This document shows positions 6,881 to 42,888 of a stretch of DNA of 64,000 nucleotides, one piece after another. The DNA is from Candidatus Omnitrophota bacterium (GTDB taxonomy: Bacteria; Omnitrophota; Gorgyraeia; Zapsychrales; Fredricksoniimonadaceae), in contig CAIVRE010000018.1 in the NCBI GenBank assembly GCA_903908245.1, positions 2,876 to 66,875 of the forward strand, read 5' to 3'. Position numbers and translations under genes: made by a program. Each line of letters begins with the position of its first letter. Within the stretch, counting starts at the first letter, position 1. A model generated the notes under the pieces. It had not been told where the DNA came from and did not search any database. It saw nothing but the letters and a program-made list of their open reading frames with translations.

Positions 6881-8160
6881 AAAGCCGGACAAGCGATACA
6901 TTCCATCAAGAACGACTTAAAGGATCCGTGCGTGTCGGCGTTATCAGCCTGGGATGCGTGCGCAACACGGTTGATTCCGAGACCATTCTCGGCGGAGCTT
7001 TGCGCCGGGGGCATGAGCACTCTGTGGTGGAAGAGGCGGATGTCGTGATCGTGAACACCTGCGGTTTTATCGAGGCGGCCAAGAAGGAATCCATTGATGT
7101 TATTAACGGGCTCGCTGTCCTCAAAAGGCAGGGTAAGGTCAAGCGGATCATTGTGGCCGGATGCCTGGCCCAGCGTTATGCGGATGAATTGCGCCGGGGA
7201 TTCCCGGAAGTGGACGCGTTCGTCGGGGCCTTGTCCCTCAAGACCAATTCCCGCCAGTCATCGCTGTCCCTCACGCCGTCGTATTTTTCCTATCTGAAGA
7301 TCTGCGAGAGCTGTTTTAACCATTGCAGTTTTTGCGCCATTCCGAATATCAAGGGCAGGTTTTTGTCGAGGTCTTTGGAGGCCATCCTGGAGGATGTCCG
7401 CCGTCTGGACGGGCAGGGCGTCAGGGAGCTGAATATTGTCGGGCAGGATATTACCGCCTATGGCATGGACCTTTATCATGAAAAGAAGCTGGCCGGCCTT
7501 TTAAAGGAGATCGCCTGTTCGGTCAGGGGCATTGAATGGGTCCGTCTTTTATATACTTACCCGGCGCATATTACCGACGAGCTGCTTGAGGTGATCGCGG
7601 CAACACCCGTGATCTGCAAGTATATTGATATGCCGTTGCAGCATATCAATGACAGGATCCTTGAGCGGATGGACCGTAACATGACCCGTTCGGGGATAGA
7701 GAAGCTGATCGCGAAGATCCGCCGCAGGGTTCCCGGGGCAGCGCTTCGGACGACTTTTATCGTAGGGTTCCCCGGGGAAACCCGGAAAGAGTTCAAGGAG
7801 CTTGTCGCGTTCATTAAAGACCATCCTTTTGAGCGCGTGGGCGCATTCATGTATTCCCGCGAGGACGGGACAAAAGCGTATGTTTTGGGGGATCCGGTTC
7901 CCGCCAGGACAAAGCAGGCGCGTTTAAAGAAGTTAATGTTTGAACAAGGGTCCGTGGCCGCTGCCTTGCAGGGCAGGTTTGTCGGGAAGACCCTGAAGGT
8001 CCTTGTTGACGGTGAGGGGACCGGCCGCAGCGAGTATGATGCGCCGGAGGTGGATGGCTGTGTTCATTTTTCAGGCGCGCCGGAGACCAGGCCCGGGCAA
8101 TTCGTTGATGTAAAAATAACCGCGGCCAGCGGGTATGACCTTGAGGGGATAGTGGTATAA
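6877..8160 (+). CDS. rimO: ribosomal protein S12 methylthiotransferase RimO
   Basis: MTTase N-terminus (VGVISLGCVRNTVDSE), the radical-SAM motif CxxxCxxC (CESCFNHCSFC), and a C-terminal TRAM domain. The GTG start overlaps the rodZ stop. Confidence 0.85.
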   Translation: MKSRTSDTFHQERLKGSVRVGVISLGCVRNTVDSETILGGALRRGHEHSVVEEADVVIVNTCGFIEAAKKESIDVINGLAVLKRQGKVKRIIVAGCLAQRYADELRRGFPEVDAFVGALSLKTNSRQSSLSLTPSYFSYLKICESCFNHCSFCAIPNIKGRFLSRSLEAILEDVRRLDGQGVRELNIVGQDITAYGMDLYHEKKLAGLLKEIACSVRGIEWVRLLYTYPAHITDELLEVIAATPVICKYIDMPLQHINDRILERMDRNMTRSGIEKLIAKIRRRVPGAALRTTFIVGFPGETRKEFKELVAFIKDHPFERVGAFMYSREDGTKAYVLGDPVPARTKQARLKKLMFEQGSVAAALQGRFVGKTLKVLVDGEGTGRSEYDAPEVDGCVHFSGAPETRPGQFVDVKITAASGYDLEGIVV

Positions 8161-9358: not shown

Positions 9359-10156
9359 ATGTTCCGTTCATCCAATCCAACATTAAAAGATGGCCTGTTC
9401 TCGGAGGCGAGTATCCTTGCCGACGGCCAGGTGATGACCATTCAGGGGACGGTCAACAAGACGCTGATCATGCTGCTCCTGCTGGCGGCGGGTGCCGCGT
9501 GGGTGTGGCAGGGGATCACGCCGTTCTTATCGCAGGCGGCTCTTGCGTCGAGCGGGAGTATTGCCGCAGCAGTGTCCCAAGGCAGCGCCGTCGTATTGCC
9601 TTTTGCTATCGGCGGTTTTTTTGTCGCGCTTGTTCTCAGTTTTGTGATCGCGTTCAAGCCGAACTTCTCTCCTTATCTTGCGCCTGTTTACGCGGTGGCG
9701 GAAGGGTTTGCCCTGGGTGGTATTTCCGCCCTGATCGAGTTCCGGTTCCCCGGGATCGTCATGCAGGCTGTCCTGCTGACGTTCGCCACCTTGTTTTGCC
9801 TGTTAATGGCGTATAAGGTCGGGTTTATCCGTGTGACCGACAAGTTCCGTCTTGGAATTGTTGTGGCGACGATGGCGATCGCGCTTATTTATGTTGTCAA
9901 TATGGTCATGGGGTTTTTTCATGCATCGATCCCGTTCATTTCCGGCAGCGGGTTCTTCGGGATCGCGTTTAGCGTGTTCGTGGTAGGGATCGCCGCACTG
10001 AACCTGGTATTGGACTTTGACCTTGTGGAGCGCGGGGCGGAGTCGGGCGCGCCAAAGTATATGGAATGGTATGGCGGGTTTGCCCTGATGGTCACCCTTG
10101 TGTGGCTTTATATCGAGATCCTGAATCTGCTGATGAAGCTTAGAAGCCGCGATTGA
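9359..10156 (+). CDS. Bax inhibitor-1/YccA family membrane protein
   Basis: N-terminal SSNPTL... then seven hydrophobic helices. The overall architecture is that of TMBIM/YccA-like proteins. Confidence 0.7.
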   Translation: MFRSSNPTLKDGLFSEASILADGQVMTIQGTVNKTLIMLLLLAAGAAWVWQGITPFLSQAALASSGSIAAAVSQGSAVVLPFAIGGFFVALVLSFVIAFKPNFSPYLAPVYAVAEGFALGGISALIEFRFPGIVMQAVLLTFATLFCLLMAYKVGFIRVTDKFRLGIVVATMAIALIYVVNMVMGFFHASIPFISGSGFFGIAFSVFVVGIAALNLVLDFDLVERGAESGAPKYMEWYGGFALMVTLVWLYIEILNLLMKLRSRD

Positions 10157-10613
10157 CCGCTTGCGCGAGCAGTCCAAGGGCTGTCTGACTTGATTGTGTT
10201 TTGATCGAGGCCCGGGTTCCGGTAAAGAAACATTTTTTGACGATGGTATGCCGGCGCGATGCCAGCGCGATGAACACCAGCCCGACAGGTTTCCGGTCTG
10301 TTCCTCCGGCCGGCCCGGCGATACCGGTAGTGGCGATCGCAAGGTCAACATTGAACTGCTTGCGCGCGCCTTCGGCCATGGCTTTTGCCACTGCCGCCGA
10401 GACTGCCCCATGCGTTTTGATCATTCGGTCAGGGACCTTCAGGAAGCGGGTTTTTATCGTATTGGCATAGGCGATGATGCCGCCTGTCAGGAAGGCGGAT
10501 GAGCCGGGGATATTGGTCAGCGTATGGGCTATAAGGCCGCCGGTGCATGATTCAGCGGTAGCGAGTGTCAAACCCCTGGCAGTCAATGTTTTTGCGATCG
10601 CGCTCGTCTTCAT
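10140..10613 (-). CDS. pncC: CinA C-terminal domain protein / nicotinamide-nucleotide amidohydrolase PncC
   Basis: Hallmark CinA_C motif TLATAESCTGGLIA and ...IATTGIAGPAGG. This is one of only three credible minus-strand genes in the window. Confidence 0.8.
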   Translation of the reverse strand: MKTSAIAKTLTARGLTLATAESCTGGLIAHTLTNIPGSSAFLTGGIIAYANTIKTRFLKVPDRMIKTHGAVSAAVAKAMAEGARKQFNVDLAIATTGIAGPAGGTDRKPVGLVFIALASRRHTIVKKCFFTGTRASIKTQSSQTALGLLAQAVNRGF

Positions 10614-10715
10614 ACCCGTCTAATATACCCCAGGACAAATGGCTTGACAAGGGTGGATATTTCGGAATAATGAAACGATAATTTATCCTGTTTTAACTCT
10701 AAAAAAGGACCAAAC

Positions 10716-11915
10716 ATGTTCCATCCTATCCCCGAGATCCTTGAAGAACTTAAAGCCGGCCGTATGGTCATTGTGATGGATGACGAAAGCCGGGAGAATG
10801 AAGGCGACCTGTTAATAGCAGCCGAGCACGTGACCCCTGATGCCATTAATTTTATGGCAAAATACGCACGCGGTCTTGTTTGTGTGCCAATGGAGGCTGC
10901 CCGCCTTGACCTTCTTGGTCTTTTTCCGATGAAGGATGCCACGAGCGACCTTCACCAGCCGTGCAATACCGGTTGGGCTATTTCGGTGGATGCGGCGCAT
11001 GGCATAACAACAGGGATCTCCGCGGCCGACCGGTCGTATACGGTCAAGATCCTGATCGATAACAAGTCGACGGCGAAAGACCTGGTGACTCCGGGGCATT
11101 TATTCCCGCTGCGTGCCAAGAAAGGCGGGGTTCTGGTCCGTGCCGGGCATACAGAGGCGTCGGTTGACCTTACCAAGATGGCTGGCCTGTATCCGGCCGG
11201 GGTTATTTGCGAGATCATGAACGATGACGGCACAATGGCGCGGACTCTGGACCTGGTCGAATTTTCAAAGAAACACAAGCTCAAGATCTGCACGATCGAC
11301 AGCCTTATTGAATATCGCCGCAAGAACGAAAAGTTCATCATACGCCAGGCGGATGTGGCATTGCCGACAAAGTTCGGCGAGTTCCATATGGTGGTTTACA
11401 CCTCCAGGATCGATGATTTTGAGCACGTAGCTCTGGTGAAGGGGCAGATCGACCAGACCACGCCTGTTTTGGTGCGGGTCCAGTCGGAGTGCCTGACCGG
11501 GGATGTGTTCGGAAGCTTGCGTTGCGATTGCAACAGCCAGCTGGAAGAAGCCATGGACCGTATTGCCAAGGAAAAGTCCGGTATCCTGCTTTATATGCGT
11601 CAGGAAGGGCGCGGTATCGGTTTGCTCAATAAACTTAAGGCCTATGCCTTGCAGGACAAGGGAATGGATACGGTAGAAGCCAATGAGGCATTGGGTTTTG
11701 CGGCAGACCTTCGTGATTATGGTATCGGCGCGCAGATCCTGGTCGATCTCGGGGTAAAGCAGATCCGTTTATTGACCAATAATCCCCGCAAGATCGTTGG
11801 CCTGGAAGGGTATGGGCTTACGGTCGTGGAGCGGGTCGCCTTGTTGATCCCGCATAATGAACGCAACAAGAAGTATCTTGATGCCAAAAAGGCCAAGCTC
11901 GGGCACTGGTTATAA
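10716..11915 (+). CDS. ribBA: bifunctional 3,4-dihydroxy-2-butanone-4-phosphate synthase / GTP cyclohydrolase II
   Basis: DHBP synthase N-half ([16 protein letters not shown]) and a GTP cyclohydrolase II C-half with the zinc motif [14 protein letters not shown]. Confidence 0.9.
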
Positions 11916-19227: not shown

Positions 19228-19231
<4 letters not shown>

Positions 19232-20115
19232 AAGCACTGCTGGCTGAATTCCTGAATTATTTATCCGTTGAGCGGGGGTTGGCTAAAAACACTTTGATGG
19301 CGTACGAGCGGGATCTTCTGGCGTATGGTAAATTCCTTAAAGGCCATTGCGGAGTTGAGCCGGAAGCCGTGAAGCGGGAGCATGTGACCGATTATATGCT
19401 GAGCCAGAAGAATGCGGATATGGAGTCGACGTCCATTTGCCGGAGCCTGGCGGCGATACGCATGTTCCATCGTTTTTTGGTCAGGGAGAATTTTGCGAAA
19501 GAAGACCCGACAGACCTGGTCGACACCCCCAGGACATGGAAACGGATCCCGGCGGTATTGAACCAGGCCGAGATCGACGCGATGATCAAGGCGGCCCAGG
19601 GCCGCGGCTGGCAGGCGGAAAGGGACCGTGCGATCCTGGAGCTTTTTTATGCTTCAGGCCTGCGGGTCTCCGAGCTGGTGGGGTTAAAGGTCGAGAGCGT
19701 GAATCTGAATATGGGATTTGTCCGTTGTATCGGTAAAGGCAGCAAGGAGCGGCTTATTCCGGTGGGGGGCAAGGCGAAAGAGGCGGTTGAGAAATATTGC
19801 GCAGGCGGACGGAAAAAGATATCCACTGGCCGCGATACGGATATTCTGTTCCTGAGCCGCCTGGGCAAAGGGATGTCCCGGCAGAGCGCCTGGAAGATCA
19901 TCAAGCATTATGCGCGCAAGGCGGGAATAAAAAAGACGATCAAACCGCACACGCTGCGTCACACGTTCGCGACGCATTTGCTGGAGCATGGTGCGGACCT
20001 GCGCAGTGTCCAGGAAATGCTGGGCCATGCGGATATCGCTACGACGCAGATATATACTCATGTTGACCGCGAGCGTTTACGCGCGGTCCATAAAGAATTT
20101 CATCCTCGGGGTTAA
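19228..20115 (+). CDS. xerD: site-specific tyrosine recombinase XerD/XerC
   Basis: N-terminal FLNYLSVERGLAKNTLMAYERDL, and a C-terminal catalytic R...HxxR...Y pattern (HTLRHTFATHLLEHGADLRSVQEMLGHADIATTQIYTHV). Confidence 0.8.
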
Positions 20116-24718: not shown

Positions 24719-25006
24719 ATGATGACGCTGATCCACTCCAAACTCGTCTTTAAGCACATGGTGGAGCTTCCGCATTGTGAATGTGTGTTCTGTTCCACCC
24801 AGGAAGAATCCACCGGGCGGACCAGGATCTACCTGCTGTTCAAGGAGCGTCATAAGGTTTATCAGCGTAACGGCGCCAAGGGCAACTGGGAAGAGCTGCT
24901 TGATGCCGAGGACCGGCAGCATGTATGGGATGGTTTTGAGCAGGCGGTGATGGAGCGGAAGATCCCCAGTTTTGTGGCGGCCTCTTCTGACTTTGCGGCT
25001 TTATGA
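24719..25006 (+). CDS. hypothetical small Cys/His-containing protein (95 aa) inserted between mraZ and rsmH
   Basis: The ATG is 6 nt after AGGAGG. The stop overlaps the rsmH start (ATGA). It carries an HCECVFC motif. No family recognised. Confidence 0.45.
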   Translation: MMTLIHSKLVFKHMVELPHCECVFCSTQEESTGRTRIYLLFKERHKVYQRNGAKGNWEELLDAEDRQHVWDGFEQAVMERKIPSFVAASSDFAAL

Positions 25007-26329: not shown

Positions 26330-28012
26330 TTGAATTCCCAGCGCTATCCTATACGCCTTGGCTTTATCTTTTCTGGCATATTCCTGCTTTTAGCGCTATT
26401 CACTGTCAAATTGTCCCTTATTCAGGTCTTCCGATCCAGTTATCTGGCAGATAAGGCGGATAAACAGCACAACCATGTGGTGGATCTGGAGCCTCGCCGG
26501 GGAACGATCTATGACCGGGAGTTGCGCGCGCTGGCGCTCAATGTCGCGGCGTATTCGCTCTTCGCGAACCCCAAGGCGATGACTCCGGAGCAGAAGTCGC
26601 TGGCCGCGCGAAAAGTTGCGGAGGTCCTTGGAGAAAGTGAAGCGTCCTTGCTCAGGAAAATGGAGAAGCCCAAAAATTTCGTGTGGCTGGCGCGGAAGGT
26701 CCCTCAGGCCGCATATGAAAGGTTAAAGACCGAGAAGATCCGCGGCCTGGCTTTTATTAAAGAAAGCAAAAGGTTTTACCCTAACGGGGAACTGGCCGCC
26801 CATGTGATCGGGTTCGCGAATATTGATAATGTCGGGCTTCAAGGTGTTGAGCTCGAGTTCAACAAGTACCTGCAGGGGACCAAAGGGGTGGCGCAGTTCC
26901 TGCGCGATGCCCGTCAGCGCGACCTGATGATCGAGAAGGACTTTATTGCGCCCAAGGACGGGCATGATATTGTGCTGACGATCGATGAGACCATTCAGTT
27001 CATCGCGGAAAAAGCCATTGAAAAGGCGTTCGTCAAATACAATGCCGCTTCCGCCAGTGTCATTGTCCTGAATCCGAAGACAGGAGAGGTGTTGGCGTTC
27101 GCAAACCGCCCGACCTTCCGTCCGGACGCGCCGGATAAAAGCCCGGTCGAGAACCGCACGAATCGCGCGGTGGCGTTTGTTTATGAACCAGGTTCTGTTT
27201 TCAAGATCGTGACAGCAACGGCCGCATTGGAAGAGGGCGTTACCAACGAGGAAGAGATTTTCTTTTGCGAGAACGGGAAATACCTGGTGGGGAACCATAT
27301 TCTTAAAGATGCGCATCCTAAAGGGAGGCTGACATTCCGCCAGGTCATAGAAGAGTCCAGCAATATCGGGACGGTCAAGGTGGCGCAGCGTCTTGGGCCG
27401 GACAAGATCTATGAGTATGCGCACCGGTTCCACTTTGGACAAAAGACCAACATCGGGATGACGGGAGAGGTCAGCGGCTTGTTAAAGCCGACCAGCCGCT
27501 GGTCGAAGACATCGATCGGCGCCATTCCTATCGGCCAGGAGGTAACGGTGACACCGGTGCAGCTGGTCATGGCTATTGCGGCTATCGCCAATGACGGGGT
27601 CATGATGAAGCCGTATTTTATAAAATATGTCAAGGCGCCGAATGGCATGGTCATTGAGGAGAATAAGCCCCAGGTGGTCGGACGGGTGATGCGCCCCGAA
27701 ATATCCCGGCGTGTGCGCAGTATCCTTCAGGGGGTCATTGATGAAGGAACGGCACAGATGGCCAAGATGAAGGATGTCCCTGCCGGCGGAAAGACAGGTA
27801 CCGCGCAAAAAGTGGTGGATGGCGTTTATTCGCACAGCAAATTCGTGGGGTCGTTCATCGGGTTTGCCCCGGTGGATGATGCGAAACTCGCGGTCGTGGT
27901 GACCGTGGATGAACCGCATCCGGCGTATTATGGCGGTGTGGTCGCCGGGCCGGTGTTCAAGGAGGTGGTGGAGGATTCATTGAAGTATCTGGCGGGGAGA
28001 AAAGGCCTTTAA
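26330..28012 (+). CDS. ftsI: peptidoglycan D,D-transpeptidase FtsI (class B PBP)
   Basis: N-terminal TM and PBP dimerisation domain, then a transpeptidase domain with SVFK (SxxK), SSN (SxN) and KTGTA (KTG). Confidence 0.85.
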   Translation: MNSQRYPIRLGFIFSGIFLLLALFTVKLSLIQVFRSSYLADKADKQHNHVVDLEPRRGTIYDRELRALALNVAAYSLFANPKAMTPEQKSLAARKVAEVLGESEASLLRKMEKPKNFVWLARKVPQAAYERLKTEKIRGLAFIKESKRFYPNGELAAHVIGFANIDNVGLQGVELEFNKYLQGTKGVAQFLRDARQRDLMIEKDFIAPKDGHDIVLTIDETIQFIAEKAIEKAFVKYNAASASVIVLNPKTGEVLAFANRPTFRPDAPDKSPVENRTNRAVAFVYEPGSVFKIVTATAALEEGVTNEEEIFFCENGKYLVGNHILKDAHPKGRLTFRQVIEESSNIGTVKVAQRLGPDKIYEYAHRFHFGQKTNIGMTGEVSGLLKPTSRWSKTSIGAIPIGQEVTVTPVQLVMAIAAIANDGVMMKPYFIKYVKAPNGMVIEENKPQVVGRVMRPEISRRVRSILQGVIDEGTAQMAKMKDVPAGGKTGTAQKVVDGVYSHSKFVGSFIGFAPVDDAKLAVVVTVDEPHPAYYGGVVAGPVFKEVVEDSLKYLAGRKGL

Positions 28013-28020
28013 AGGACAGT

Positions 28021-29553
28021 ATGGACAAAAAAACAGCTATTTTAAAGGTTAGCCTCGGTGTTGCGTTCATGGTGTTCTTTCTTTGGACGTTTTTTTCGTA
28101 TGTGCCTTTTAATATGGATGAGCTTTGTTCTTATCATGTGATCGCCTGCAATGAATATCCGTTGAACAAGCTCAATGTGTTCCGGGAGCGCTGTGATGCC
28201 TGCGACCTTTCGGTCCTGAAAGGCCCTTTTGTCCCCTTATTGACGTATTCGTATGTTGGAAGTTCTGCTGCTGCTGTTTATTATCCATTGTTCAAATTAT
28301 GGCGATCTCCGTATTCCATCAGATTCCTGGGGCTGCTGTTCCTGGCGGCGCAGGCGTTCCTTTTATATAAGATATTCCGTCTGGACCTCTTCTTCTGTTT
28401 CTTTTTCCTGTTGCTCTTCTTCCCGTATGCGTTTCAGCACATGGTTGATTTTGGGCCGAAGCTTCTGCAAACGACATCGATCTTTCTTGTTTTATATTTG
28501 TCGCGGCAGTGGCGCCTGGCGGCAGAGGCCGGATCGGGGAGCAGCTGGAAGTATCCCGCTTGCATAGGTGCGTTGATATTCCTGGGTGTGTGGACGAAGC
28601 TCGCGTATTTTCTTGTGGTGCCATCGATCCTTGTTCTTGTTGCGTATACTCTTTTTGAAGGGCGGGGGATGAGGGCTTTTGATTTGAAACAGTTCAAGCG
28701 CGGGTGGCTCTTCCTGGTTTTGACAGCGATCGTACCGAGTTACATTCTTTTGAATGGCGTTAATCGCTGGGGGGCAAAATATGCCAAGATCGCCGAGAAC
28801 GGGAAGTTTGTCCCATTATTCGATCTTGCCGGGTTGAGGGATCATTTTATAGCCCTTTCAAAATTCTTCACGAACCCGTTACAAAGTGCGCATGTGGTCT
28901 TTGAAGTAAAAGAGACCGCGACTTTTGCGGGAATATTCTTTTTGGTATTGATGGCCGGGTTTTTCTGTTTTGCTGTCTGGCGGATGTTTTCAAGCGGGAA
29001 AAGAGTCGCTTTTGTGGTATTGAATATAGCCCTTTTCTTTGTTGCATTGATCCTGATGGCGTATAACCAGAACGTTTGGGCCATGCATCATGTGGCGCTG
29101 GCATTCCCTTTTCTTCTTTTGGCTCTTTTTGATATCTTTTCCCAATGTTATAAGGACAAAGCGATGAAGATATTTCTTGCTGTCTTTATTTGTTCCAATC
29201 TTTTCTTTTATGGCGCTCTGACACAGGAAAAGCCTTTTGCGAACAGTTATCCGGGCCTGGTCCGTTTTAATGAATTTCTAAGCAAGGGGTATTCCAGGGA
29301 CCATGTTTTTGTTGTGATCGATTGGGGGATGTATTATTTGAAAAGCCTTTACGGCGAAAAGGATCAGTGCGTGATCTATATAGATCCTTTTACGGAAAAA
29401 GATGTGCCGGCGCTGAAGAAGATCCTTGAAACGACGAACAGAAGGCCGATGTTCATCGGCCGCAAGGACAGTTTTTATACCAGGGGGATCGCCGGGCATT
29501 TTACGGAAGTGACGCCCGGGTTTGATGTCGGCCCTTGGGCGGCCTGGCACTAG
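28021..29553 (+). CDS. polytopic membrane protein, putative GT-C-fold (ArnT/PMT-like) glycosyltransferase
   Basis: About 10-11 TM helices and a C-terminal soluble domain of about 100 aa. The first extracytoplasmic loop carries DExxxY (FNMDELCSYH), as in the PMT_2/ArnT family, plus 4 Cys. Local GC is visibly lower than in the flanking genes. Confidence 0.55.
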   Translation: MDKKTAILKVSLGVAFMVFFLWTFFSYVPFNMDELCSYHVIACNEYPLNKLNVFRERCDACDLSVLKGPFVPLLTYSYVGSSAAAVYYPLFKLWRSPYSIRFLGLLFLAAQAFLLYKIFRLDLFFCFFFLLLFFPYAFQHMVDFGPKLLQTTSIFLVLYLSRQWRLAAEAGSGSSWKYPACIGALIFLGVWTKLAYFLVVPSILVLVAYTLFEGRGMRAFDLKQFKRGWLFLVLTAIVPSYILLNGVNRWGAKYAKIAENGKFVPLFDLAGLRDHFIALSKFFTNPLQSAHVVFEVKETATFAGIFFLVLMAGFFCFAVWRMFSSGKRVAFVVLNIALFFVALILMAYNQNVWAMHHVALAFPFLLLALFDIFSQCYKDKAMKIFLAVFICSNLFFYGALTQEKPFANSYPGLVRFNEFLSKGYSRDHVFVVIDWGMYYLKSLYGEKDQCVIYIDPFTEKDVPALKKILETTNRRPMFIGRKDSFYTRGIAGHFTEVTPGFDVGPWAAWH

Positions 29554-29585
29554 TTTTTTCGCGCGCAAGATCTCGGCGAGGTTAA

Positions 29586-31007
29586 ATGCGGATATATCAT
29601 GTGGATGTTAACGCGGTTTGGGATGACTCCAGGCGAGTGACTCCGGGGAGTTTATTCGCGGCACTTGACGGCCCGGCCAGGAAGGGCGAGGAATTCATCC
29701 CGCAGGCTGTGGCTGGCGGGGCTTCGGTGATCGTATTGTCACGGGCCAGTGAAGCTGTATTCAGCCGCCAGTATCCGCAGGTCAAGTTCATCGGGGTGGA
29801 AGATCCCCGAATGGAGTTCAGGCAGGTCGTTGAGTCTTTTTACGGAAAGCCATCGGATAAGGTCAGGGTCATCGGGGTCACGGGAACGAACGGCAAGACA
29901 ACGATCACCTATTTCCTGGAGTCCATACTGGCTGCAGCGGGAAAGTCCTGCGGGGTTATCGGGACGGTCAATTATCGTGTGGCCGGTAAGGTTGTCCCGT
30001 CGACGAATACGACACCGGGCCTGTTGGACAATCAGATCTTTTTGAACGGGCTGGCTGCCGGGGGCATCCTTTATTCGGTGATGGAGGTTTCTTCGCATGC
30101 GCTTGATCAGGGGCGGGTGGACTTGATCGGGTTCAAGGGGGCTTTGTTCACGAACCTTACCGGCGATCATATCGACTATCATGGAACGATGGGGTCTTAT
30201 TTTGAAGCCAAGAGCCGGCTGTTCACAGGCCTTTCGGCGGATGCATATGCTGTTATTAATACCGATGATCTTTGGGGAAGAAAACTGGTGCCGTTGACGC
30301 GGGCCAGGGTCCTGACTTATGGTATTGACGAGGGGGCGGATGTTCGCGCAACGGCCATTGAGTCCGGGCGCAAGGGCGCGCGATTCGATGTTAAATTCCC
30401 CGGGGGAGAGGTTGAGATCAAGACCGTGTTCACGGGGAAGCATAATGTTTATAATATCTTGGCGGCGTTCGCGGCGGGCCTGGGCGAGGGGTTTGCGGCG
30501 GGTGTTATCAAAGAAGGGATAGAATCCCTTAAGAATGTCCCTGGCCGTCTGGAGCGGGTGGACTGCGGCCAGGAGTTTGATGTATTCATTGATTATGCGC
30601 ATACGGATGACGGGCTTAAGAATGTTCTGCAGGCTTTGCGGGAGGTCAGGCATAAGAAGCTGATCGTAGTGTTCGGCTGCGGAGGGGACCGCGACCGCAC
30701 CAAGCGCCCCCGGATGGGAACAGTGGCGTGTGAGCTGGCGGACTTTTCGATCATTACTTCGGATAATCCGCGCAGCGAGGACCCTCTGGGGATCATCCGT
30801 GAAGTGGTCCCCGGGTTCAGCAAGAAGACTTATGAGATCGTGGTCGAGCGTGAAGCGGCGATCCGCCGGGCGCTGGAATTGGCCGGGCCGGGAGACATTG
30901 TCCTTCTGGCCGGGAAAGGCCACGAGACATACCAGGTATTGAACGACAGGACCACTGATTGTGTCGAGAGGGATATTGTGGGCAGGATATTGTCAGAGAG
31001 GGGATAA
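29586..31007 (+). CDS. murE: UDP-N-acetylmuramoyl-L-alanyl-D-glutamate--2,6-diaminopimelate ligase
   Basis: Mur ligase P-loop GVTGTNGKTT, and the C-terminal DNPR motif (SDNPRSEDP) typical of meso-DAP-adding MurE. Confidence 0.9.
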   Translation: MRIYHVDVNAVWDDSRRVTPGSLFAALDGPARKGEEFIPQAVAGGASVIVLSRASEAVFSRQYPQVKFIGVEDPRMEFRQVVESFYGKPSDKVRVIGVTGTNGKTTITYFLESILAAAGKSCGVIGTVNYRVAGKVVPSTNTTPGLLDNQIFLNGLAAGGILYSVMEVSSHALDQGRVDLIGFKGALFTNLTGDHIDYHGTMGSYFEAKSRLFTGLSADAYAVINTDDLWGRKLVPLTRARVLTYGIDEGADVRATAIESGRKGARFDVKFPGGEVEIKTVFTGKHNVYNILAAFAAGLGEGFAAGVIKEGIESLKNVPGRLERVDCGQEFDVFIDYAHTDDGLKNVLQALREVRHKKLIVVFGCGGDRDRTKRPRMGTVACELADFSIITSDNPRSEDPLGIIREVVPGFSKKTYEIVVEREAAIRRALELAGPGDIVLLAGKGHETYQVLNDRTTDCVERDIVGRILSERG

Positions 31008-35842: not shown

Positions 35843-36917
35843 GAACAAGAGTTTAATTATTGCGACAGGCGGCACCGGCGGACATATTTATCCGGCGATT
35901 GTGACTGCGGAGGAATTGCGCCGGCGCGGGTGGAATGTCCGGTTCATCGGCGCGTTTGGCCCCGCAGGGGATAAACTTGCTTTTCGGGGGTTTGAATACA
36001 AGGATATTGTCGTGAAGGGGTTTGTTTCGAAAGACCTGAAGGCGATGTTTTCGGCGTTGATCTGCCTTTTAAAGGCGTGCATTTCCTGTGCAAAAGATAT
36101 TTCCCGTGCGAGGGCGGATGTGATCCTCGGTTTTGGCGGGTACAGCTCTTTTCCGGCCGTGATCGCCGGAAAGCTGATGGGCGTCAAAACCATGATCCAT
36201 GAGCAGAATGTTTGCCCCGGTGAGGCCAACAAGGTCCTGGGCGGGATCGTAAAAAAGGTCGCCATCAGTTTCAAGGATACCCAGAGTTTTTTTGCCGGAC
36301 GGGATGTTGTTTGGACCGGATATCCGATGCGGTCGCTCGACCCCGGGCGGTCGCGTAAAGAGGTGCTCCGGGTATTTGGCCTGCAGCAAGGGCGTAAGAC
36401 CATTCTTGTTTTTGGGGGAAGCCAGGGCAGCCGGGCGATCAATCATGCCGTGCTTGATTGCCTTGAAATGGTCAGCCGGGACATGCCATGGCAGGTTTTT
36501 CATCTTGCCGGTAAGGGCGGGGCGGAAGAATTAAGGCCGCGTTACGCCAAACTTCCATTCCCTTTTTATTTGCAGGATTATATGGAGAACATGTCGGATG
36601 CTTACGCGGTCGCCGACCTGGTGATCGCCCGTTCCGGCGCGGGGACTGTTACAGAGCTTGGCCTTTTGGGGGTTCCGGCCATTTTGATCCCGTATCCTTA
36701 TGCGAATGGTCATCAGGAAGCCAACGCGCAGGTTCTGGCACGTCGTTCGGCCGCTGTAATAATTCGGGAAAAAGACTTGAACCCCGCCATGCTTGGGGAT
36801 AAGATTTTTTCCGGGCTTGAAACGGGCTCGTCCGCAGAAGTGCTACGCCAGGGATTATCCAAGGATATTGTATCTGACGCAGTTATTCGGCTCGCTGATG
36901 AGGTTGAATTATTGTGA
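35829..36917 (+). CDS. murG: undecaprenyldiphospho-muramoylpentapeptide beta-N-acetylglucosaminyltransferase
   Basis: N-terminal G-loop ATGGTGGHIYPA, with a C-terminal GT-B domain. Confidence 0.85.
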   Translation: MAVDKNKSLIIATGGTGGHIYPAIVTAEELRRRGWNVRFIGAFGPAGDKLAFRGFEYKDIVVKGFVSKDLKAMFSALICLLKACISCAKDISRARADVILGFGGYSSFPAVIAGKLMGVKTMIHEQNVCPGEANKVLGGIVKKVAISFKDTQSFFAGRDVVWTGYPMRSLDPGRSRKEVLRVFGLQQGRKTILVFGGSQGSRAINHAVLDCLEMVSRDMPWQVFHLAGKGGAEELRPRYAKLPFPFYLQDYMENMSDAYAVADLVIARSGAGTVTELGLLGVPAILIPYPYANGHQEANAQVLARRSAAVIIREKDLNPAMLGDKIFSGLETGSSAEVLRQGLSKDIVSDAVIRLADEVELL

Positions 36918-37699
36918 CCATGCTCCGGTGTGCTTTATTGGCATTATTGTTCATGTTCCCGGCTTTGATGGCCAGTTCCGCCGAATGGCATGAGGTCAAG
37001 GCCGAGCATTTTATCGTTTATTACAAGAATGCCTCGGCCCGTTTTGTGGAAAATACGGTGTCCAGGGCGGAAGAGGATTATAAGGCTACGGCCACAAGTC
37101 TGGGATTCACCCGGTATAAGGGCTGGACCTGGAATGGCCGCGTGAAGATCTATATTTACGATAATGCCGAAGATTACAAAGCTTCATCGGGGCTTGGGTG
37201 GTCGGCAGGGTCGGTGCAGACCAGGTCGAAGGTCATTTCGGCATATCCGTCGGCGCACGGGTTCTTTGATTCCACATTGCCCCATGAGATCGGGCATATT
37301 ATTTTTCGCGATTTTGTCGGGGAGGATGCGGCGGTCCCTTTGTGGCTCGAGGAGGGTGTCGCGATGTTCCAGGAGGAGTCCGGGCGCTGGGGTTCGGATG
37401 ATGAGGTGCGGCGCATCATGGAGGAAAACAAGTTCATTTCCCTTGCGGACCTGACGGGCCTTGAATTGAACCGGAATTCCGACCCGGAGCTGGTGCGTAT
37501 TTTTTATGTTGAGGCGGCCAGCCTGGTCAGTTTTTTGCTTGATGAAGGAGAGATGTACCGTTTCGCGCGCCTTTGCCGGGAATTAAAAAGCGGTACGCGT
37601 TTTGAATGGGCATTGAAGAAAGCTTATATGAAGTATCAGACGATCAATGCCCTCGAGGCGGCCTGGAAGGACCATTTAAGCTATGAAAAGAAAAAATAA
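36914..37699 (+). CDS. secreted putative gluzincin-type metallopeptidase (Peptidase_MA-like)
   Basis: Signal peptide (ALLALLFMFPALMASSA). HEIGH zinc-binding motif, with a downstream Glu in LEEG about 18 residues after the second His, giving HEXXH-X18-E. Both ends overlap neighbours: murG at the start and murC-ddl at the stop. Confidence 0.55.
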   Translation: MTMLRCALLALLFMFPALMASSAEWHEVKAEHFIVYYKNASARFVENTVSRAEEDYKATATSLGFTRYKGWTWNGRVKIYIYDNAEDYKASSGLGWSAGSVQTRSKVISAYPSAHGFFDSTLPHEIGHIIFRDFVGEDAAVPLWLEEGVAMFQEESGRWGSDDEVRRIMEENKFISLADLTGLELNRNSDPELVRIFYVEAASLVSFLLDEGEMYRFARLCRELKSGTRFEWALKKAYMKYQTINALEAAWKDHLSYEKKK

Positions 37700-40085
37700 T
37701 CTTAAGACCAAAATAAAAAAATATCATTTTATAGGGATCGGCGGAATGGGGATGGGGAATCTGGCCCTGTTGATGCTGGCCAAGGGGTATTCTATCAGCG
37801 GGTCCGATGAGAAAGAGGGCGATCTGACGCGCCAGCTGCGGGACAGGGGCGCGAAGGTGTATATCGGCCATGACCTGCGTAATATTGACGGTGCCGATTG
37901 CGTGGTATATTCTTCGGCGATCTCGGCAAGCAACCCGGAAATGTTCGAGGCGGTGCGTTTGCATATGCCGATCCTTAAAAGGGCGGAGTTGCTGGCCCAA
38001 TTGGTGAACAAGGAAGTGGGCATCACTGTTGCCGGTGCCCACGGCAAGACCACAACATCCTCCATGGCGTCCCTGCTTTTGATCAACGCCGGGCTGAATC
38101 CTACCACCGCTATCGGGGGGGTCGTCCTCCAGGGATATAACGCGAATCTCGGGATAGGGCGGCATATTGTGGCGGAAGTTGATGAGAGCGACGGTTCTTT
38201 CCTGTATTTTTCTCCGCATTTCTCGATCATCACCAATATCGATCGCGAGCATCTGGATCATTACAAGACCATGGATAATGTCCGGGGGGCTTATGCCAAG
38301 TTCGTGGAGCGCACGGTGCCGGGTGGCGTTGTTATTGCCTGCGGGGATAATCAGGAGCTGCGCGTGATCGTTGAGAATGGCGGGCGCCGTTATGTGACTT
38401 ATGGTTTTGCCGATGATAACGAGTGGGTGGCGACGAATATTCAGTGTGATGCCAACGGTTCTTCTTATGATTGCTATTATCATCAGCAGATGATCGGGCG
38501 TTTTGGCCTTACGGTGCCGGGGAAACACAATATCCTCAATTCCCTTGCGGTCATTGTGCTGGGGTTTGAGCTGAAGATCGAGGTCCCGGTCATCATGGAA
38601 ACGCTGGCGGCTTTTCAGGGGGTCAAGCGCCGCTTTGAGCGCAAGGGGGAAGTGGGAGGGGTCCTGGTGGTGGATGATTATGGCCATCATCCGACGGAGA
38701 TCGCGGCGACCCTTCAGGCCGCGCGTACGCTGGGCCGCAAGCGCCTGATCGTGGCGTTTCAGCCGCATCGTTATTCCCGTACCCAGCTTCTGATGAGCGA
38801 GTTCGCGGCTTGTTTTACCCTGGCGGATCAGTTGATCCTGACGGATATCTATTCCGCCGGAGAAAAGCCTGTTGAAGGGGTTACGACGGAGGTCCTCCTG
38901 GAAAAGGTGCATGCCCAGCGTCCCCAGGAGCTCGCGTATTTGAAGAAAGAGGCGATCGTCCCTCATTTATTATCCATTGTCCATCCGGGAGACCTGGTCT
39001 TGACGCTTGGCGCCGGTGATATCACACGGATATCCGATGAGCTGGTCCGTGCGCTCGAGGGGCGCGTCGGGTTCGATCATATTCCGCCGGCACGGGAGCG
39101 TTCGGTCGATGAAATCAGGGCGCTCGGTACCATTGGTGTTGTCCTGGGCGGTTGTTCGTCAGAGAGGGAGGTTTCCCTCCGGTCGGGGGGCGCGGTGGTC
39201 AAGGCTTTGACAGGAGCGGGATGCCGGGTCAAGGTCCTCGACCTGGTCACTGAAGATCGCGACCTGGTCAAGGAGTGGTTCAGATCGGAGAAGATCGATG
39301 TGGTGTTCATCGCATTGCACGGGCGGTTCGGCGAGGATGGCGGGCTGCAGGCAATACTCGACGAGATGGATATCCCTTATCAGGGCTGCGGTCCTTCGGC
39401 CAGTTACGCGGCGTTCAATAAATCGGTGGCCCAGAAGCAGTTCGAAGACAAGGGCGTGCGTACTCCAAGGACTGTGACCATTAAAGGGGCCGCAGCCTTG
39501 TGCCTTGATGATATTTTCAAGGGGGTCGGGCCTTTTCCGATGGTGGTAAAGCCCGCGTGTGAAGGGTCGAGCATCGGGGTCGTTCTTGCAAGGGACGAGG
39601 CCTTGTTACGCGATGCCGTGCTCAAGGCGGAAGTGTTCGGCAGGGATATTGTTATCCAGGAGTATATCCGTGGCCGGGAACTGACGGTCGGCATCCTGGG
39701 CAGCTGTCCGCTGCCGGTCGTCGAGATCTGTGTCCCGCCGGAGGATGGCCTGATCTTTGATGTTTCGGCGAAATATGAAAAGACTACGACACGGTATATT
39801 GTTCCGGCCGATCTTTCGCCGGATGTGACGGCCGATGTCCAGGCAGAGGCTCTTAAGGCTTACCGGGCGCTTCGTTGCGAAGGGTTCGGGAGAGTGGATG
39901 TCCTGCTTGACGCGAATAATATCCCTGTGGTCCTGGAGATCAATACCATTCCCGGGTTCACTGCGACCAGCCTTTTGCCCAAAGCGGCTCGTGCTGCCGG
40001 ACTGGATTTTACGCAGCTGTGCCTGACACTGGTTGAAATGGCGTATGGCAAAAAGAAATCAGAATCGATCTCCCATCAGCATTGA
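37683..40085 (+). CDS. murC: bifunctional UDP-N-acetylmuramate--L-alanine ligase / D-alanine--D-alanine ligase (MurC-Ddl fusion)
   Basis: 800 aa. The N-half is MurC (IGIGGMGMG, GAHGKTTT). The C-half from about residue 470 is Ddl, an ATP-grasp domain (GVVLGGCSSEREVSLRSG...KPACEGSSIGV...). Confidence 0.85.
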   Translation: MKRKNNLKTKIKKYHFIGIGGMGMGNLALLMLAKGYSISGSDEKEGDLTRQLRDRGAKVYIGHDLRNIDGADCVVYSSAISASNPEMFEAVRLHMPILKRAELLAQLVNKEVGITVAGAHGKTTTSSMASLLLINAGLNPTTAIGGVVLQGYNANLGIGRHIVAEVDESDGSFLYFSPHFSIITNIDREHLDHYKTMDNVRGAYAKFVERTVPGGVVIACGDNQELRVIVENGGRRYVTYGFADDNEWVATNIQCDANGSSYDCYYHQQMIGRFGLTVPGKHNILNSLAVIVLGFELKIEVPVIMETLAAFQGVKRRFERKGEVGGVLVVDDYGHHPTEIAATLQAARTLGRKRLIVAFQPHRYSRTQLLMSEFAACFTLADQLILTDIYSAGEKPVEGVTTEVLLEKVHAQRPQELAYLKKEAIVPHLLSIVHPGDLVLTLGAGDITRISDELVRALEGRVGFDHIPPARERSVDEIRALGTIGVVLGGCSSEREVSLRSGGAVVKALTGAGCRVKVLDLVTEDRDLVKEWFRSEKIDVVFIALHGRFGEDGGLQAILDEMDIPYQGCGPSASYAAFNKSVAQKQFEDKGVRTPRTVTIKGAAALCLDDIFKGVGPFPMVVKPACEGSSIGVVLARDEALLRDAVLKAEVFGRDIVIQEYIRGRELTVGILGSCPLPVVEICVPPEDGLIFDVSAKYEKTTTRYIVPADLSPDVTADVQAEALKAYRALRCEGFGRVDVLLDANNIPVVLEINTIPGFTATSLLPKAARAAGLDFTQLCLTLVEMAYGKKKSESISHQH

Positions 40086-40827
40086 CCTTGTGCGTTTCGG
40101 GGTCATTGCCGTTTTTGTTCTGTTGGCGCTGGTCATCTCCGGGGTCGCCCTGACGTCATTTGTGCGTCATTCCGGCCTCTTTGTGATACGGGATGTTGTG
40201 ATCAGCGAAAGCCTGGGGGAGGTCAATGTCCCCGAGCTTGCGAAGTTGAAGGGGCAGAATATTTTTCTGGTCGATCTTGAAAAGGTCGAGCAGAAGGTGA
40301 TCTCCCGGTATCCGGGGATCGCCGGCCTCGAGGTCCTGCGGCGTTTCCCGGATGAGATATTAGTGGCGGGGGCGCGCCGGACAGCGTTCGCGGCGGCATT
40401 GATGGATGGTAAAAGTGTGCTGCTGTCCCGTGACGGTTGTTTTATCGGCGCTTTGGGAAAAGAGGATGGGCCCCTTGCCGTTATCAAAGGGATGCGGCAT
40501 CAGAAGGTTTCGTCCGGTATAATGCTTAACGATCCTTTTGGCCTGGAAGCCTTGAAAGCGGTTGAACTGGTCTATAAAGACCCGGCATTGGCTGCACTGC
40601 ATTTGCGCGGCCTGGATGTGAGCGACCCGAACAAGATCGTGTTCACTTTTGGCCTGGCGGAAGATCCGGCCAGATTCGAGGTTATGGTGGATAAGGATAA
40701 TTACGCGTTAAAGCTCAAGACCCTTTCGGTCATGGTCGCCAGGACGGAGCTCGCGGTCAATGAGGTTAAATATATCGACCTCAGGTTTGAAACGCCTGTG
40801 ATCGGCAAGAGGAAGACAAAAAAATGA
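40033..40827 (+). CDS. ftsQ: cell division protein FtsQ (POTRA-containing)
   Basis: Short basic cytoplasmic tail, one TM helix, then a POTRA-like/beta-rich periplasmic domain, in the canonical position before ftsA. The start is uncertain: ATG 40033 overlaps murC-ddl, and GTG 40090 is the alternative. Confidence 0.65.
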   Translation: MKWRMAKRNQNRSPISIDLVRFGVIAVFVLLALVISGVALTSFVRHSGLFVIRDVVISESLGEVNVPELAKLKGQNIFLVDLEKVEQKVISRYPGIAGLEVLRRFPDEILVAGARRTAFAAALMDGKSVLLSRDGCFIGALGKEDGPLAVIKGMRHQKVSSGIMLNDPFGLEALKAVELVYKDPALAALHLRGLDVSDPNKIVFTFGLAEDPARFEVMVDKDNYALKLKTLSVMVARTELAVNEVKYIDLRFETPVIGKRKTKK

Positions 40828-42077
40828 AAAAAGTCAGGGATCTTGTCGGACAGTTTTTTCGGGAGCGCATTTTCTGCGGGCTGGATATCGGGTCGCAGAA
40901 GATCAAGGCCAGCCTTTGCAAGGTCCAGGATGCGGAGAATTTTGAATTGCTGGGGGTCTATGAAGTGGATACCCGGGGGTTCAAGGACGCTTCGGTCAAT
41001 GACCTGGGCGAGTTCTCGGGGGCGATCAGTGCGGCGCTCGACGGCCTGGCCAGGAAGACCAAGACAGGGTCCAGGTTCCGGGATGTTTATCTTGGCCTCG
41101 GAGGAGAGTTGGTGGAGACCCGGATGAGCCGGGCGGTCATTCCGCTCACCGAGCGCGGGAATAAAGTGATCGTTCCCAGTGATGTGAAGGCGGCCCGTCA
41201 GCAGGCGCGCCTGCTGGGAATGCGGCTTGAGGAAGATGTCGTTGAAGATTTTGTCCGGCAGTTCAAGATCGACGATATCAATGTGGCGCTCAATCCGGTC
41301 GGGCTTTACGGGCGCAAGCTGGAGGTCGAGGTCCTGCTGGTGCTGATAAACAATACACGGTTGCGGAATATTCAGAAGGCGGTCAAACAGGCCGGCTATG
41401 AGGTCAATAAAGTGTTCTTTAACGGTGCGGCGTTGAGTGAGGCGTCCATTGGCCATCAGAGGCGCAATGATGGTTGCGTGCTGGTCGATGTGGGGGCCAG
41501 GAAGACGGAAATATATATTTTCAAGGAAGGGCTTCTTAAACATTTCAATTTTGCCTTGTTCGGCGGGGACCGGATCACGGCCCGTCTGGCGAAAGAGCTG
41601 AAGATCTCTTTCGCCCTGGCGGAAGACATTAAAAAAAGTTATGGCCGCCTGGGTGATAAAACGCAGCATGGTGCGGAGGATATCATTATCAAGAAGGACC
41701 AGGGGTTTATCCCTATCAGGCATGCCGCTATCCGCGGTCCGATCGATGAAGAGGTCGGTGTGCTGATCGAGCATATCCGTGACAGTATCGCGGCTTCAGG
41801 GTATGAAGGGCAGATCCGCTCCGGTATTGTTATGGCGGGCGGAGGGGCTTTGATGCCGGGCCTGATGGAGCATGTTGAGATCTCTCTTGGCCTTCCTGTT
41901 ACAGCGGCGCGCAGTATCCCCGGCCTTGTCCCGGCGTTGTTGTATGCGGTATCCACCAGCATCGCGGAAATGGGGTACAAGGGCAGCATGCGGTATGTCT
42001 TTGATACACGAAAACCGAAGGACTGGTGGGATGCCCTGGTGTCCAGGTTCAGGGAAATGTGCAACGAGTATTTTTGA
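40824..42077 (+). CDS. ftsA: cell division protein FtsA (actin-like ATPase)
   Basis: SHS2/actin-fold motifs (GLDIGSQKIKA, VLVDVGARKTEI, IVMAGGGALMPGL), a C-terminal amphipathic helix, 417 aa. It follows ftsQ. It could alternatively be PilM-like, but the context favours FtsA. Confidence 0.75.
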   Translation: MKKVRDLVGQFFRERIFCGLDIGSQKIKASLCKVQDAENFELLGVYEVDTRGFKDASVNDLGEFSGAISAALDGLARKTKTGSRFRDVYLGLGGELVETRMSRAVIPLTERGNKVIVPSDVKAARQQARLLGMRLEEDVVEDFVRQFKIDDINVALNPVGLYGRKLEVEVLLVLINNTRLRNIQKAVKQAGYEVNKVFFNGAALSEASIGHQRRNDGCVLVDVGARKTEIYIFKEGLLKHFNFALFGGDRITARLAKELKISFALAEDIKKSYGRLGDKTQHGAEDIIIKKDQGFIPIRHAAIRGPIDEEVGVLIEHIRDSIAASGYEGQIRSGIVMAGGGALMPGLMEHVEISLGLPVTAARSIPGLVPALLYAVSTSIAEMGYKGSMRYVFDTRKPKDWWDALVSRFREMCNEYF

Positions 42078-42085
42078 CGGCTGTT

Positions 42086-42445
42086 TTATTCGTCGTTGAT
42101 GTTGCGGTCTGTCCTGCGGCGCGCGAGGTTGAAGTCCATGTTCTTGAGGACACTGCGGATCTTGAGCATCCCGGAGAACATGAACAGCATCCAGAAAGAG
42201 TTGAGGAGCATCAGGAATACGATCAAAAGCCCAAGGTAGTTCTGGTTGAGCAGAAGCCGTTCCGTGAGCGATATTTTTGCGATATCGGCCGTTGTATTAA
42301 TGGTGTTGAGGGAAAGGATAAAGAACACGACGAACGCCACGATCAGGATCATTTCAAAGAAAAGCACGTAGAAGTGGCGTACGAACCACTGATTGGAGCG
42401 GTTATCCCACTGACGGACCTGGTTCATGAAAGAAGTTAATGACAT
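42086..42445 (-). CDS. hypothetical two-TM membrane protein
   Basis: Minus-strand ORF convergent with ftsA, with two long hydrophobic helices. Start taken at MSLTSF, but the longer start at 42493 is possible. The local sequence is AT-richer than its surroundings. Confidence 0.4.
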   Translation of the reverse strand: MSLTSFMNQVRQWDNRSNQWFVRHFYVLFFEMILIVAFVVFFILSLNTINTTADIAKISLTERLLLNQNYLGLLIVFLMLLNSFWMLFMFSGMLKIRSVLKNMDFNLARRRTDRNINDE

Positions 42446-42510
42446 GGGAATCATTTTATGTGTTTTGTCGATGAGTGTCAATTTTTTAAACATATAACCC
42501 TTGTGAGAAC

Positions 42511-42888
42511 ATGATCCCCAAGATCCTTATTGTTGACGATGACCGGATCAATATCACCCTGCTGAAATTCACGCTTAAAGAGAAGCGTTATGATGTGCTG
42601 ACCGCGGGCGACGGCATTGAAGGTTTAAAGGCGGTGGCGGAGTTCAGGCCCGACCTGATCATCCTTGATGTCCAGATGCCTAAGATGAATGGTTTTGAGT
42701 TCATGTCCGAGTTGAAATGCCTGCCGGAGGGAGGGGCTACGCCGGTCATTATGCTGACATCCAATGACAATATGCAGGACATGTTCTATTCGGAAGGGGT
42801 GAAGGGCTATTTTGTGAAACCGGTCGATCCGCTGAAGATGGAAGCTAGGATCCGTCAGCTTCTGGGGATCACGGGTGAGATCCTTTAA
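42511..42888 (+). CDS. single-domain response regulator (CheY-like receiver)
   Basis: Acidic pocket DDD, the phospho-acceptor Asp in LIILDVQMP, Thr in MLTSN, and Lys in FVKP. It has no output domain. Confidence 0.8.
   Translation: MIPKILIVDDDRINITLLKFTLKEKRYDVLTAGDGIEGLKAVAEFRPDLIILDVQMPKMNGFEFMSELKCLPEGGATPVIMLTSNDNMQDMFYSEGVKGYFVKPVDPLKMEARIRQLLGITGEIL

Follow-up and report, generated by a model that had tools for sequence, protein, structure and literature searches.

The protein reported here resembles in its predicted fold the glycosyltransferases of the GT-C_A structural class, which combine a conserved N-terminal module of seven transmembrane (TM) helices with a variable C-terminal module (PMC13503287; we used the criteria as described in this paper, which cites an earlier classification). 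A first loop with two helices is a hallmark of the class, and its known catalytic bases include ALG12 E35, ALG3 D71 and ALG9 D82 (PMC13503287). In ALG12 the donor phosphate is bound by R185 of the TM5-TM6 loop, ALG3 uses a histidine in the loop before TM10 as phosphate ligand, and in ALG9 and ALG12 the conserved module is followed by four further TMs and a luminal domain (PMC13503287). The family GT136 was recently established from its fold and activity, sequence similarity being absent (PMC11127046). Here we analyzed a stretch of 64,000 nucleotides (nt) from an uncultured Omnitrophota bacterium, called the window below, whose positions serve as coordinates. Its division and cell wall (dcw) cluster carries an additional gene, named X here, at 28021-29553. 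X starts with ATG on the plus strand, which also carries ftsI, murE and, of the genes described at the end, the small ORF before rsmH, the Peptidase_MA_2 gene and the MurC-Ddl fusion, and encodes a polytopic membrane protein of 510 amino acids (aa) between ftsI and murE. By analogy with characterized enzymes, we propose that X is an accessory, inverting, lipid-carrier-dependent periplasmic glycosyltransferase of the GT-C_A class, recently inserted into the dcw cluster and transcribed with it, and we give this reading as a whole a probability of about 0.62.

An AlphaFold2 model of X built on the family alignment was very confident (pLDDT 93.2, pTM 0.92). The Foldseek search of this model against the PDB returned GT-C glycosyltransferases for all of its top 24 matches, among them AglB, ArnT, PglB, STT3, ALG12, DPY19, ALG3, AftA/B, Emb, Pmt4 and PimE, after which the probability was 0.12 or less for transporters; a transporter fold or a WaaL/Wzy-type fold was ruled out on this basis. 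The E-value for AglB was 6e-5, the best TM-score was obtained with ArnT (5ezm, 0.52/0.50), and the best fold matches were active enzymes, with the higher Z (16-18). Thus, the GT-C-like fold suspected in the first-pass annotation, which was made from the sequence alone, was borne out by the model, and the predicted overall fold of X is that of the GT-C_A class.

The TM helices were assigned from the DSSP helices of the model, hydropathy and the positive-inside rule. Eleven were found, with the N-terminus inside, where 10 or 11 had been expected. The N-terminal module (aa 1-247, 28021-28761) holds seven of them, at about residues 7-27, 97-119, 123-142, 147-166, 177-192, 194-212 and 228-247, and matches the GT-C_A definition. 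Within it, extracytoplasmic loop 1 (aa 28-96, 28102-28308) contains two short helices in the model (32-45 and 47-51). The module is followed by a long extracytoplasmic loop 4 of 53 residues (aa 248-300, 28762-28920) with helices and an NPL motif, which by its position would be equivalent to the loop bridging the donor groove in GT-C_A enzymes. Then come a variable module of four TM helices (aa 301-400, 28921-29220) and a C-terminal extracytoplasmic alpha/beta domain of 110 aa (aa 401-510, 29221-29550). In its short loops, X has 12 lysines and arginines on the assigned cytoplasmic side and only one (K193) outside, and the family means agree; loop 1 and the C-terminal domain are accordingly predicted to lie outside the cytoplasm, as the first reading of the sequence had supposed. 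The arrangement of X is therefore that of GT-C_A, with seven then four TMs and a terminal domain, a two-helix loop 1, and a predicted orientation of this loop towards the outside.

Conservation was evaluated in 100 diverse family members, down to about 20% overall identity. The motif FNMDELCSYH, in which an acidic pair had been noticed at first, occupies residues 30-39, and the pair itself, D33-E34 (28117-28122), stands at the N-terminal end of the first helix in loop 1 (D in 97 and E in 96 of the 100 members). It is a putative catalytic base motif, and its location appears to be the catalytic-base position of GT-C_A enzymes such as ALG12 (E35). Also conserved in loop 1 are P29, C43, C58, P72, Y78, G80 and P89. 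G80 and R101 are invariant, and R101 (28321-28323, 100/100), at the outer end of TM2, is by analogy a candidate donor-phosphate ligand. K193 (28597-28599), in the TM5-TM6 turn, is the sole basic residue in the short outside loops, and its position is basic in 99% of the members (K in 88, R in 11). D143, likewise at the outer face, is found in 94%, and the outer end of TM10 bears H356-H357 (95% and 96%) and P363-F364 (92% and 93%). The C-terminal domain shows a D-W-G-x-Y-Y...L-Y-G...Q motif and W506, with G436, G445, Q449 and W506 each conserved above 90%. From their topological position, R101, K193 and H356/H357 may all be donor-phosphate ligands. The family signature is thus NMDEF in loop 1, invariant R101, basic K193, HH356-357 and a DWGxYY C-terminal domain. 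X matches every family position conserved at 80% or more except one, R74L, where it has a leucine (L74, 28240-28242) and the consensus is arginine (86%). The four loop cysteines pointed out in the first-pass annotation are all present (C36, C43, C58, C61), but the family keeps just C43 (80%) and C58 (77%). These two are both present in 77 members, both absent in 20 and split in 3; such co-occurrence is the expectation for a disulfide in an oxidising compartment, which supports an outside location of loop 1.

On these grounds the following mechanism can be proposed. A GT2-type synthase would make a polyprenyl-monophosphate sugar, the presumed donor of X, on the cytoplasmic face, and this donor would then be flipped outward. 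It could enter a groove between the conserved 7-TM module and loop 4, where its phosphate would be held at the outer membrane face by R101, K193 and H356/H357, with the help of R74 in most family members. D33/E34 would deprotonate a hydroxyl of the periplasmic acceptor, which would attack the anomeric carbon, and the four variable TMs together with the C-terminal alpha/beta domain may select the acceptor. By comparison with Gtr-, ArnT- and PMT_2-type enzymes, a glycan or glycoconjugate of the envelope is the most likely acceptor.

The family itself has no name in the databases consulted. Pfam gave no family above threshold (E ≤0.01) for X or for any of the 29 family members scanned, and NCBIfam gave no match to X. 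Nor did PDB sequences match X by phmmer or the family profile. The Pfam families first thought of as candidates (PMT_2, PMT, Glyco_transf_22, DUF2079) were absent from the results for all 29 members, and membership of X in PMT_2 (PF13231) or PMT (PF02366), the CAZy GT39/GT83 type, or in Glyco_transf_22 was rejected. The sub-threshold matches to TgpA_N and FixQ, seen in 1 of 29 members, were treated as noise. A word-indexed search retrieved 31 homolog clusters, in which all source-named proteins were called 'hypothetical protein' and the named organisms were Candidatus Omnitrophota. The exhaustive profile search extended the family to 860 representative clusters (at 50% identity) with E ≤1e-3, 312 of them with E ≤1e-30. 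A scan of the genome collection with a 10-sequence alignment of the family led to 9 loci; the genome matches of the family carry the labels Omnitrophota, Candidatus Peribacteria and, in one case, 'Chlamydiota'. In this last metagenome-assembled genome (MAG), the homolog (L020, JBAXOY010000086.1) lies between the same 710-aa and ~480-aa minus-strand genes as in another homolog locus (L008), and the contig is possibly mislabelled or mis-binned.

Bacterial proteins of the GT39/PMT_2 type, annotated as 'glycosyltransferase family 39 protein', resemble X in their size (~490 aa), in an invariant loop-1 DE pair (WNDEL against NMDEF in the X family), and in that they often adjoin X homologs, as do the paralogs in L006, L016 and L018. 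In the profile-profile comparison with the X family (Prob 71%, E 3.8e-5), the alignment was restricted to the C-terminal module, namely the final two TMs and the outside domain. With residues 1-250, hhalign against a 52-sequence GT39-type profile was not significant (Prob <1%); the alignment to a single PMT_2 sequence, not significant either, places FNMDEL on FWNDEL, which is suggestive only. Since the N-terminal modules do not align significantly, X is not a member of PMT_2/GT39 or of the other sequence-defined families tested. We thus consider that X belongs to a separate, database-unnamed sequence family within the GT-C_A fold class.

ALG12 and ALG9, which are mannosyltransferases of the endoplasmic reticulum (CAZy GT22) dependent on dolichyl-phosphate mannose, have like X a 7-TM module, four TMs and a C-terminal luminal or outside domain, as well as a catalytic-type acidic residue where the first loop helix begins, close to position 33-35 (E35 in ALG12). 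ALG12 also has a basic residue in the TM5-TM6 loop (R185, K193 in X). However, identity is ~10%, there is no Glyco_transf_22 match, X has the NMDEF loop-1 motif and a cysteine pair that distinguish it, and these enzymes are eukaryotic whereas X is bacterial; the dolichyl-pyrophosphate oligosaccharide of their N-glycan pathway cannot be the acceptor of X. The likeness to Glyco_transf_22 (ALG9/ALG12/PIG-B) is at fold level only. ArnT (GT83), the transferase of 4-amino-4-deoxy-L-arabinose from undecaprenyl phosphate to lipid A, and the protein with the best TM-score, can be likened to X because it resides in the inner membrane of bacteria, has its C-terminal domain in the periplasm and takes its sugar from a polyprenyl monophosphate, as is presumed for X. 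It differs by its 13 TMs (11 in X), 8-11% identity and the lack of a PMT_2 match in X, and partners of the arn operon (ArnC-type GT2, ArnE/F flippase) were not found in the window. Three-component systems of the Gtr type or GT136 come close to the role proposed for X: a GT-C enzyme takes a sugar from a lipid monophosphate and adds it, outside the cytoplasm, to a glycan that is already complete, and the genes are accessory, patchy and fast-evolving. A GT2 of the GtrB/ArnC type with a C-terminal TM adjoins one X homolog (P0002), which is a further likeness to these systems; unlike them, X has no adjacent synthase or flippase partner in the window, and the literature searched offered no example of such a system within a dcw operon.

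Elsewhere, members of the family are found in other surroundings than X. Two Wzy_C genes, a GT4 and a GT2 lie by the homolog of L007, and a GT2 with a C-terminal TM domain (GT2_TM_C, GtrB/ArnC type) and a YfhO-like protein are encoded in L011. GT2 genes are also near homologs in L003 and L018, GT-C paralogs of the PMT_2 type in L006, L008, L016 and L018, B12/radical S-adenosylmethionine (SAM) enzymes with methyltransferases in L003, L007 and L008, and a carbamoyltransferase with SxtJ in L006 and L016. One family member (P0027) is fused to a CBM_4_9 carbohydrate-binding domain; the contexts of L004 and L019 were uninformative. No dcw gene was found within 6-7 kb of the other homolog loci examined. 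As many homologs thus stand in glycan-type neighbourhoods and none of these other loci has dcw genes nearby, the family is associated with envelope-glycan loci and not with cell division. The conservation of the ftsI-X-murE order, which had been suggested as a check, fails for most of the family, and the dcw site is not a family trait.

Some of these loci show recurrent arrangements. In L006 (3561-11696) and L016, a cassette associates a carbamoyltransferase, an SxtJ-like protein, DUF5989, the X homolog and up to three tandem paralogs of the PMT_2/GT39 type, which implies the existence of multi-GT-C envelope-glycan loci in Omnitrophota. L003 contains two X-family paralogs (6001-7641 and 9492-11018) amid four B12-radical-SAM genes, GT2s, a polysaccharide deacetylase and methyltransferases. 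At three unrelated loci, a flavin adenine dinucleotide (FAD) protein of 426-480 aa with NAD_binding_8 and Amino_oxidase domains is encoded directly upstream of the homolog, in the same orientation and 0-55 nt away (L001 4530-5969, L003 4665-5945, L009 4558-6000). This arrangement suggests a functional pair, for example for the modification of a sugar or lipid donor; the FAD amine-oxidase-like gene has no counterpart in the window.

In the window, the cluster runs mraZ, a small open reading frame (ORF), rsmH, ftsL, ftsI, X, murE, murF, mraY, murD, ftsW and murG, followed by more genes. The upstream neighbour of X is ftsI (26330-28012; class-B penicillin-binding protein, Pfam Transpeptidase 1.4e-79 and PBP_dimer 2.4e-23), and the downstream one is murE (29586-31007), a Mur ligase of the MurE type according to Pfam and to the annotation of close relatives. 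The ORF list confirmed the 510-aa frame reported between them. The gaps are exactly 8 nt on the ftsI side (28013-28020, AGGACAGT, with an AGGA Shine-Dalgarno ribosome-binding site) and 32 nt on the murE side (29554-29585, with a GAGG ribosome-binding site before the murE ATG and no terminator). Signal counts for a promoter or terminator belonging to X did not exceed the shuffled expectation, so that X is probably read through from the dcw promoter. Such read-through would give X a constitutive, growth-coupled expression, and its position in the cluster need not reflect a role in division.

X is poorer in GC (46.4%) than the flanking genes (54-56%) and richer in phenylalanine (12.1% against 3-7% in neighbour genes). 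The direction of the bias described in the first-pass annotation was thus right, while the 58-60% GC stated there for the flanks was wrong and the size of the difference overstated. The GC content at third codon positions (GC3) is 0.556 in X and 0.62-0.75 in the flanks (ftsI 0.668, murE 0.662, mraY 0.695, ftsW 0.749), but low values are not confined to X in the window (ribF 0.52, ftsL 0.55). No flanking repeats above chance were found at X and no transposase or integrase is encoded nearby, and a mobile-element origin was rejected on this basis; a XerC/D-type recombinase (19228-20115) lies 8 kb away amid housekeeping genes.

The history of the insertion could be followed in relatives ranked by the identity of their FtsI to that of the window (L010, L025-L028, L030 and L031). 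X is present in L010 (FtsI 89%, FtsL 87%, RsmH 78%), with 66% identity and the same 8-nt gap. It is absent from L030 (FtsI 88%) and L031 (85%), where ftsI overlaps murE, from L025 (79%) and L028 (76%), where the murE ATG overlaps the ftsI end, and from L026 (70%) and L027 (68%). In L025 (~3130-3150) and L028 (~1390-1405), this ATG lies within the last ftsI codons (AATGCACTTTGA). The direct run from ftsI into murE, taken as canonical at the outset, was thus seen in six relatives. The overlap in relatives devoid of X is a tight translational coupling, for which the insertion substituted two separate ribosome-binding sites. X recurs unchanged and in the same place in no fewer than four independent assemblies, and is therefore not a chimera. 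One MAG (GCA_015233765.1) combines a canonical dcw cluster (L031) with a family member that shares 43% identity with X and lies in a locus with PMT_2 and carbamoyltransferase genes (L006). Concatenated RsmH, FtsL and FtsI weakly favoured the grouping ((window, L010), L030), by 14 informative sites against 10 and 4 for the other two groupings, which fits a single gain in a shallow clade. GC3 of X is below that of ftsI in both carriers (0.556 against 0.668 in the window, 0.498 against 0.672 in L010). These values and the six empty junctions, one of them at 88% FtsI identity, uphold the later acquisition supposed at first. The sequence comparisons thus show a recent, clade-restricted insertion of an accessory gene, in keeping with a single event within a shallow Omnitrophota clade and probably from a lower-GC source.

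Between the window and L010, the non-synonymous divergence dN is 0.27 for X, 0.065 for ftsI and 0.145 for rsmH. For X, the proportions of non-synonymous and synonymous differences are pN 0.23 and pS 0.77, the synonymous divergence dS being saturated. These comparisons indicate purifying selection on X, whose non-synonymous evolution is nevertheless about four times as fast as that of ftsI. Within the close subfamily, R74L occurs only in the window and L010, the two dcw-located copies. The L010 contig (European Nucleotide Archive, ERZ4200879 NODE_15523) ends at 5100-5160 with the Illumina TruSeq adapter sequence AGATCGGAAGAGCACACGTCTGAACTCCAGTCAC, which makes a false stop and has generated a falsely 'complete' protein of 302 aa (P0004) in the protein database. 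As the stop sits within the adapter at the contig end, this copy is merely cut off, and its interpretation as a pseudogene was rejected.

Several points weigh against the proposed glycosyltransferase. The roles of its residues were assigned from topological position and not from structural superposition, and X does not have the family R74, a possible phosphate ligand. The N-terminal module, which would be the catalytic one, has no sequence-level link to any characterized GT-C family by Pfam, PDB or hhalign. Also, no gene for a polyprenyl-phosphate sugar synthase or flippase was found within the 64-kb window, so that the donor would have to come from a pathway with genes elsewhere; candidate GT2 partners adjoin some homologs (L011, L007, L018, L003). 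Finally, a role linked to peptidoglycan or division could be behind the tight embedding in the operon and the retention in two lineages instead.

This last idea is the alternative that survives best, although we consider it unlikely. X would be a GT-C enzyme specific to the dcw cluster and would attach its sugar at the septum to lipid II, nascent peptidoglycan or a protein of the divisome, for instance FtsI. Such a role would account for its fixation exactly between ftsI and murE. In its favour, X is seamlessly embedded there with short spacers and its own ribosome-binding site, and a second lineage has kept it at this site under purifying selection. The R74L change, which within the close subfamily is confined to the two dcw-located copies, is compatible with an altered substrate, and one homolog (L017) adjoins an L,D-transpeptidase. 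In a fuller form, which we find rather improbable, the clade would have recruited X into the dcw operon so that a sugar is added to lipid II, septal peptidoglycan or a protein of the divisome. This would be an extracytoplasmic glycosylation coupled to peptidoglycan or division and expressed together with FtsI and MurE, and R74L would mark a switch of donor or acceptor. Against this stand the two closest lineages without X (L030 and L031), in which ftsI simply overlaps murE, and the other homolog loci examined, devoid of dcw genes and often located in glycan-type clusters. The fourfold faster non-synonymous evolution of X relative to ftsI is typical of accessory surface-modifying genes and not of the core divisome, and we found no precedent for a GT-C enzyme linked to a dcw cluster in the literature searched. 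Present in two lineages and absent from six relatives at 68-88% FtsI identity, X was rejected as a core dcw or divisome component. The dedicated envelope or septal glycosylation step tied to dcw, put forward in the first-pass annotation, is likewise disfavoured by the homolog loci without dcw genes and the close relatives without X.

Distinctly less probable is a non-catalytic scaffold of GT-C fold, comparable to PIG-U/GAB1 of the glycosylphosphatidylinositol transamidase, which would bind a lipid, a glycan or a divisome partner. In favour of this reading, X has no sequence match to catalytic GT-C families. However, the acidic pair is 96-97% conserved at the exact position of the catalytic base, and the invariant arginine, the 99%-basic residue and the HH pair persist at the outer face even among members that share only about 20% of their sequence overall. 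The closest folds are those of active enzymes, and homologs co-occur with genes resembling GT2 donor synthases. The conservation pattern thus makes a scaffold unlikely, and it also disfavours the non-enzymatic divisome component that had been considered at first. The weakest explanation, a decaying passenger inserted neutrally, without current function and heading for loss, would suit the patchy presence among close relatives, the elevated dN and the lost R74, but it is very improbable given that the full-length ORF is unbroken and the same in no fewer than four independent assemblies, that all other conserved residues are preserved, that pN is well below pS (purifying selection), and that the L010 truncation is an adapter artefact.

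The accessory glycosyltransferase that we favour is an enzyme of a familiar kind, and the novelty lies in the unnamed family and in the unusual, recently acquired genomic position. With its ~860 clusters and catalytic-type signature, the family could become the nucleus of a new entry in Pfam or CAZy and thereby improve envelope annotation in Omnitrophota and in the candidate phyla radiation. The insertion is a clean, datable case of an accessory gene in one of the most conserved dcw junctions, and shows that the dcw operon can accommodate cargo and provide for its expression. If X were to act on peptidoglycan or the divisome, this would be a new kind of cell-wall modification, for which carrier and non-carrier sister lineages offer a natural comparison.

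The dcw genes are reported to be highly conserved in Omnitrophota (PMC12283558), and the cluster of the window has other particularities. Between mraZ and rsmH, an ORF of ~95 aa (MMTLIHSKLVFKHMVELPHCECVFCSTQEE..., 24719-25006) contains the cysteine-rich motif HCECVFC. It is found with 60-88% identity at the same position in L010, L030, L031, L029 and L026, with no Pfam family recorded for the called gene in these relatives, and looks like a clade-specific small dcw protein. A second non-canonical gene within the cluster, besides X, encodes a 261-aa protein of the Peptidase_MA_2 type (zinc metallopeptidase superfamily; 36914-37699) between murG and murC, and overlaps both. MurC is fused to Ddl in a single protein of 800 aa (37683-40085), in which the N, M and C domains of the Mur ligase precede the N and C domains of the D-Ala-D-Ala ligase. 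Further downstream (40824-42888), ftsA (40824-42077) is present without ftsZ next to it, and ftsZ may be encoded elsewhere in the genome. The ORF that follows ftsA (42026-42439, 137 aa, GC3 0.43, no family) looks spurious; it precedes a response-regulator receiver gene and queA.

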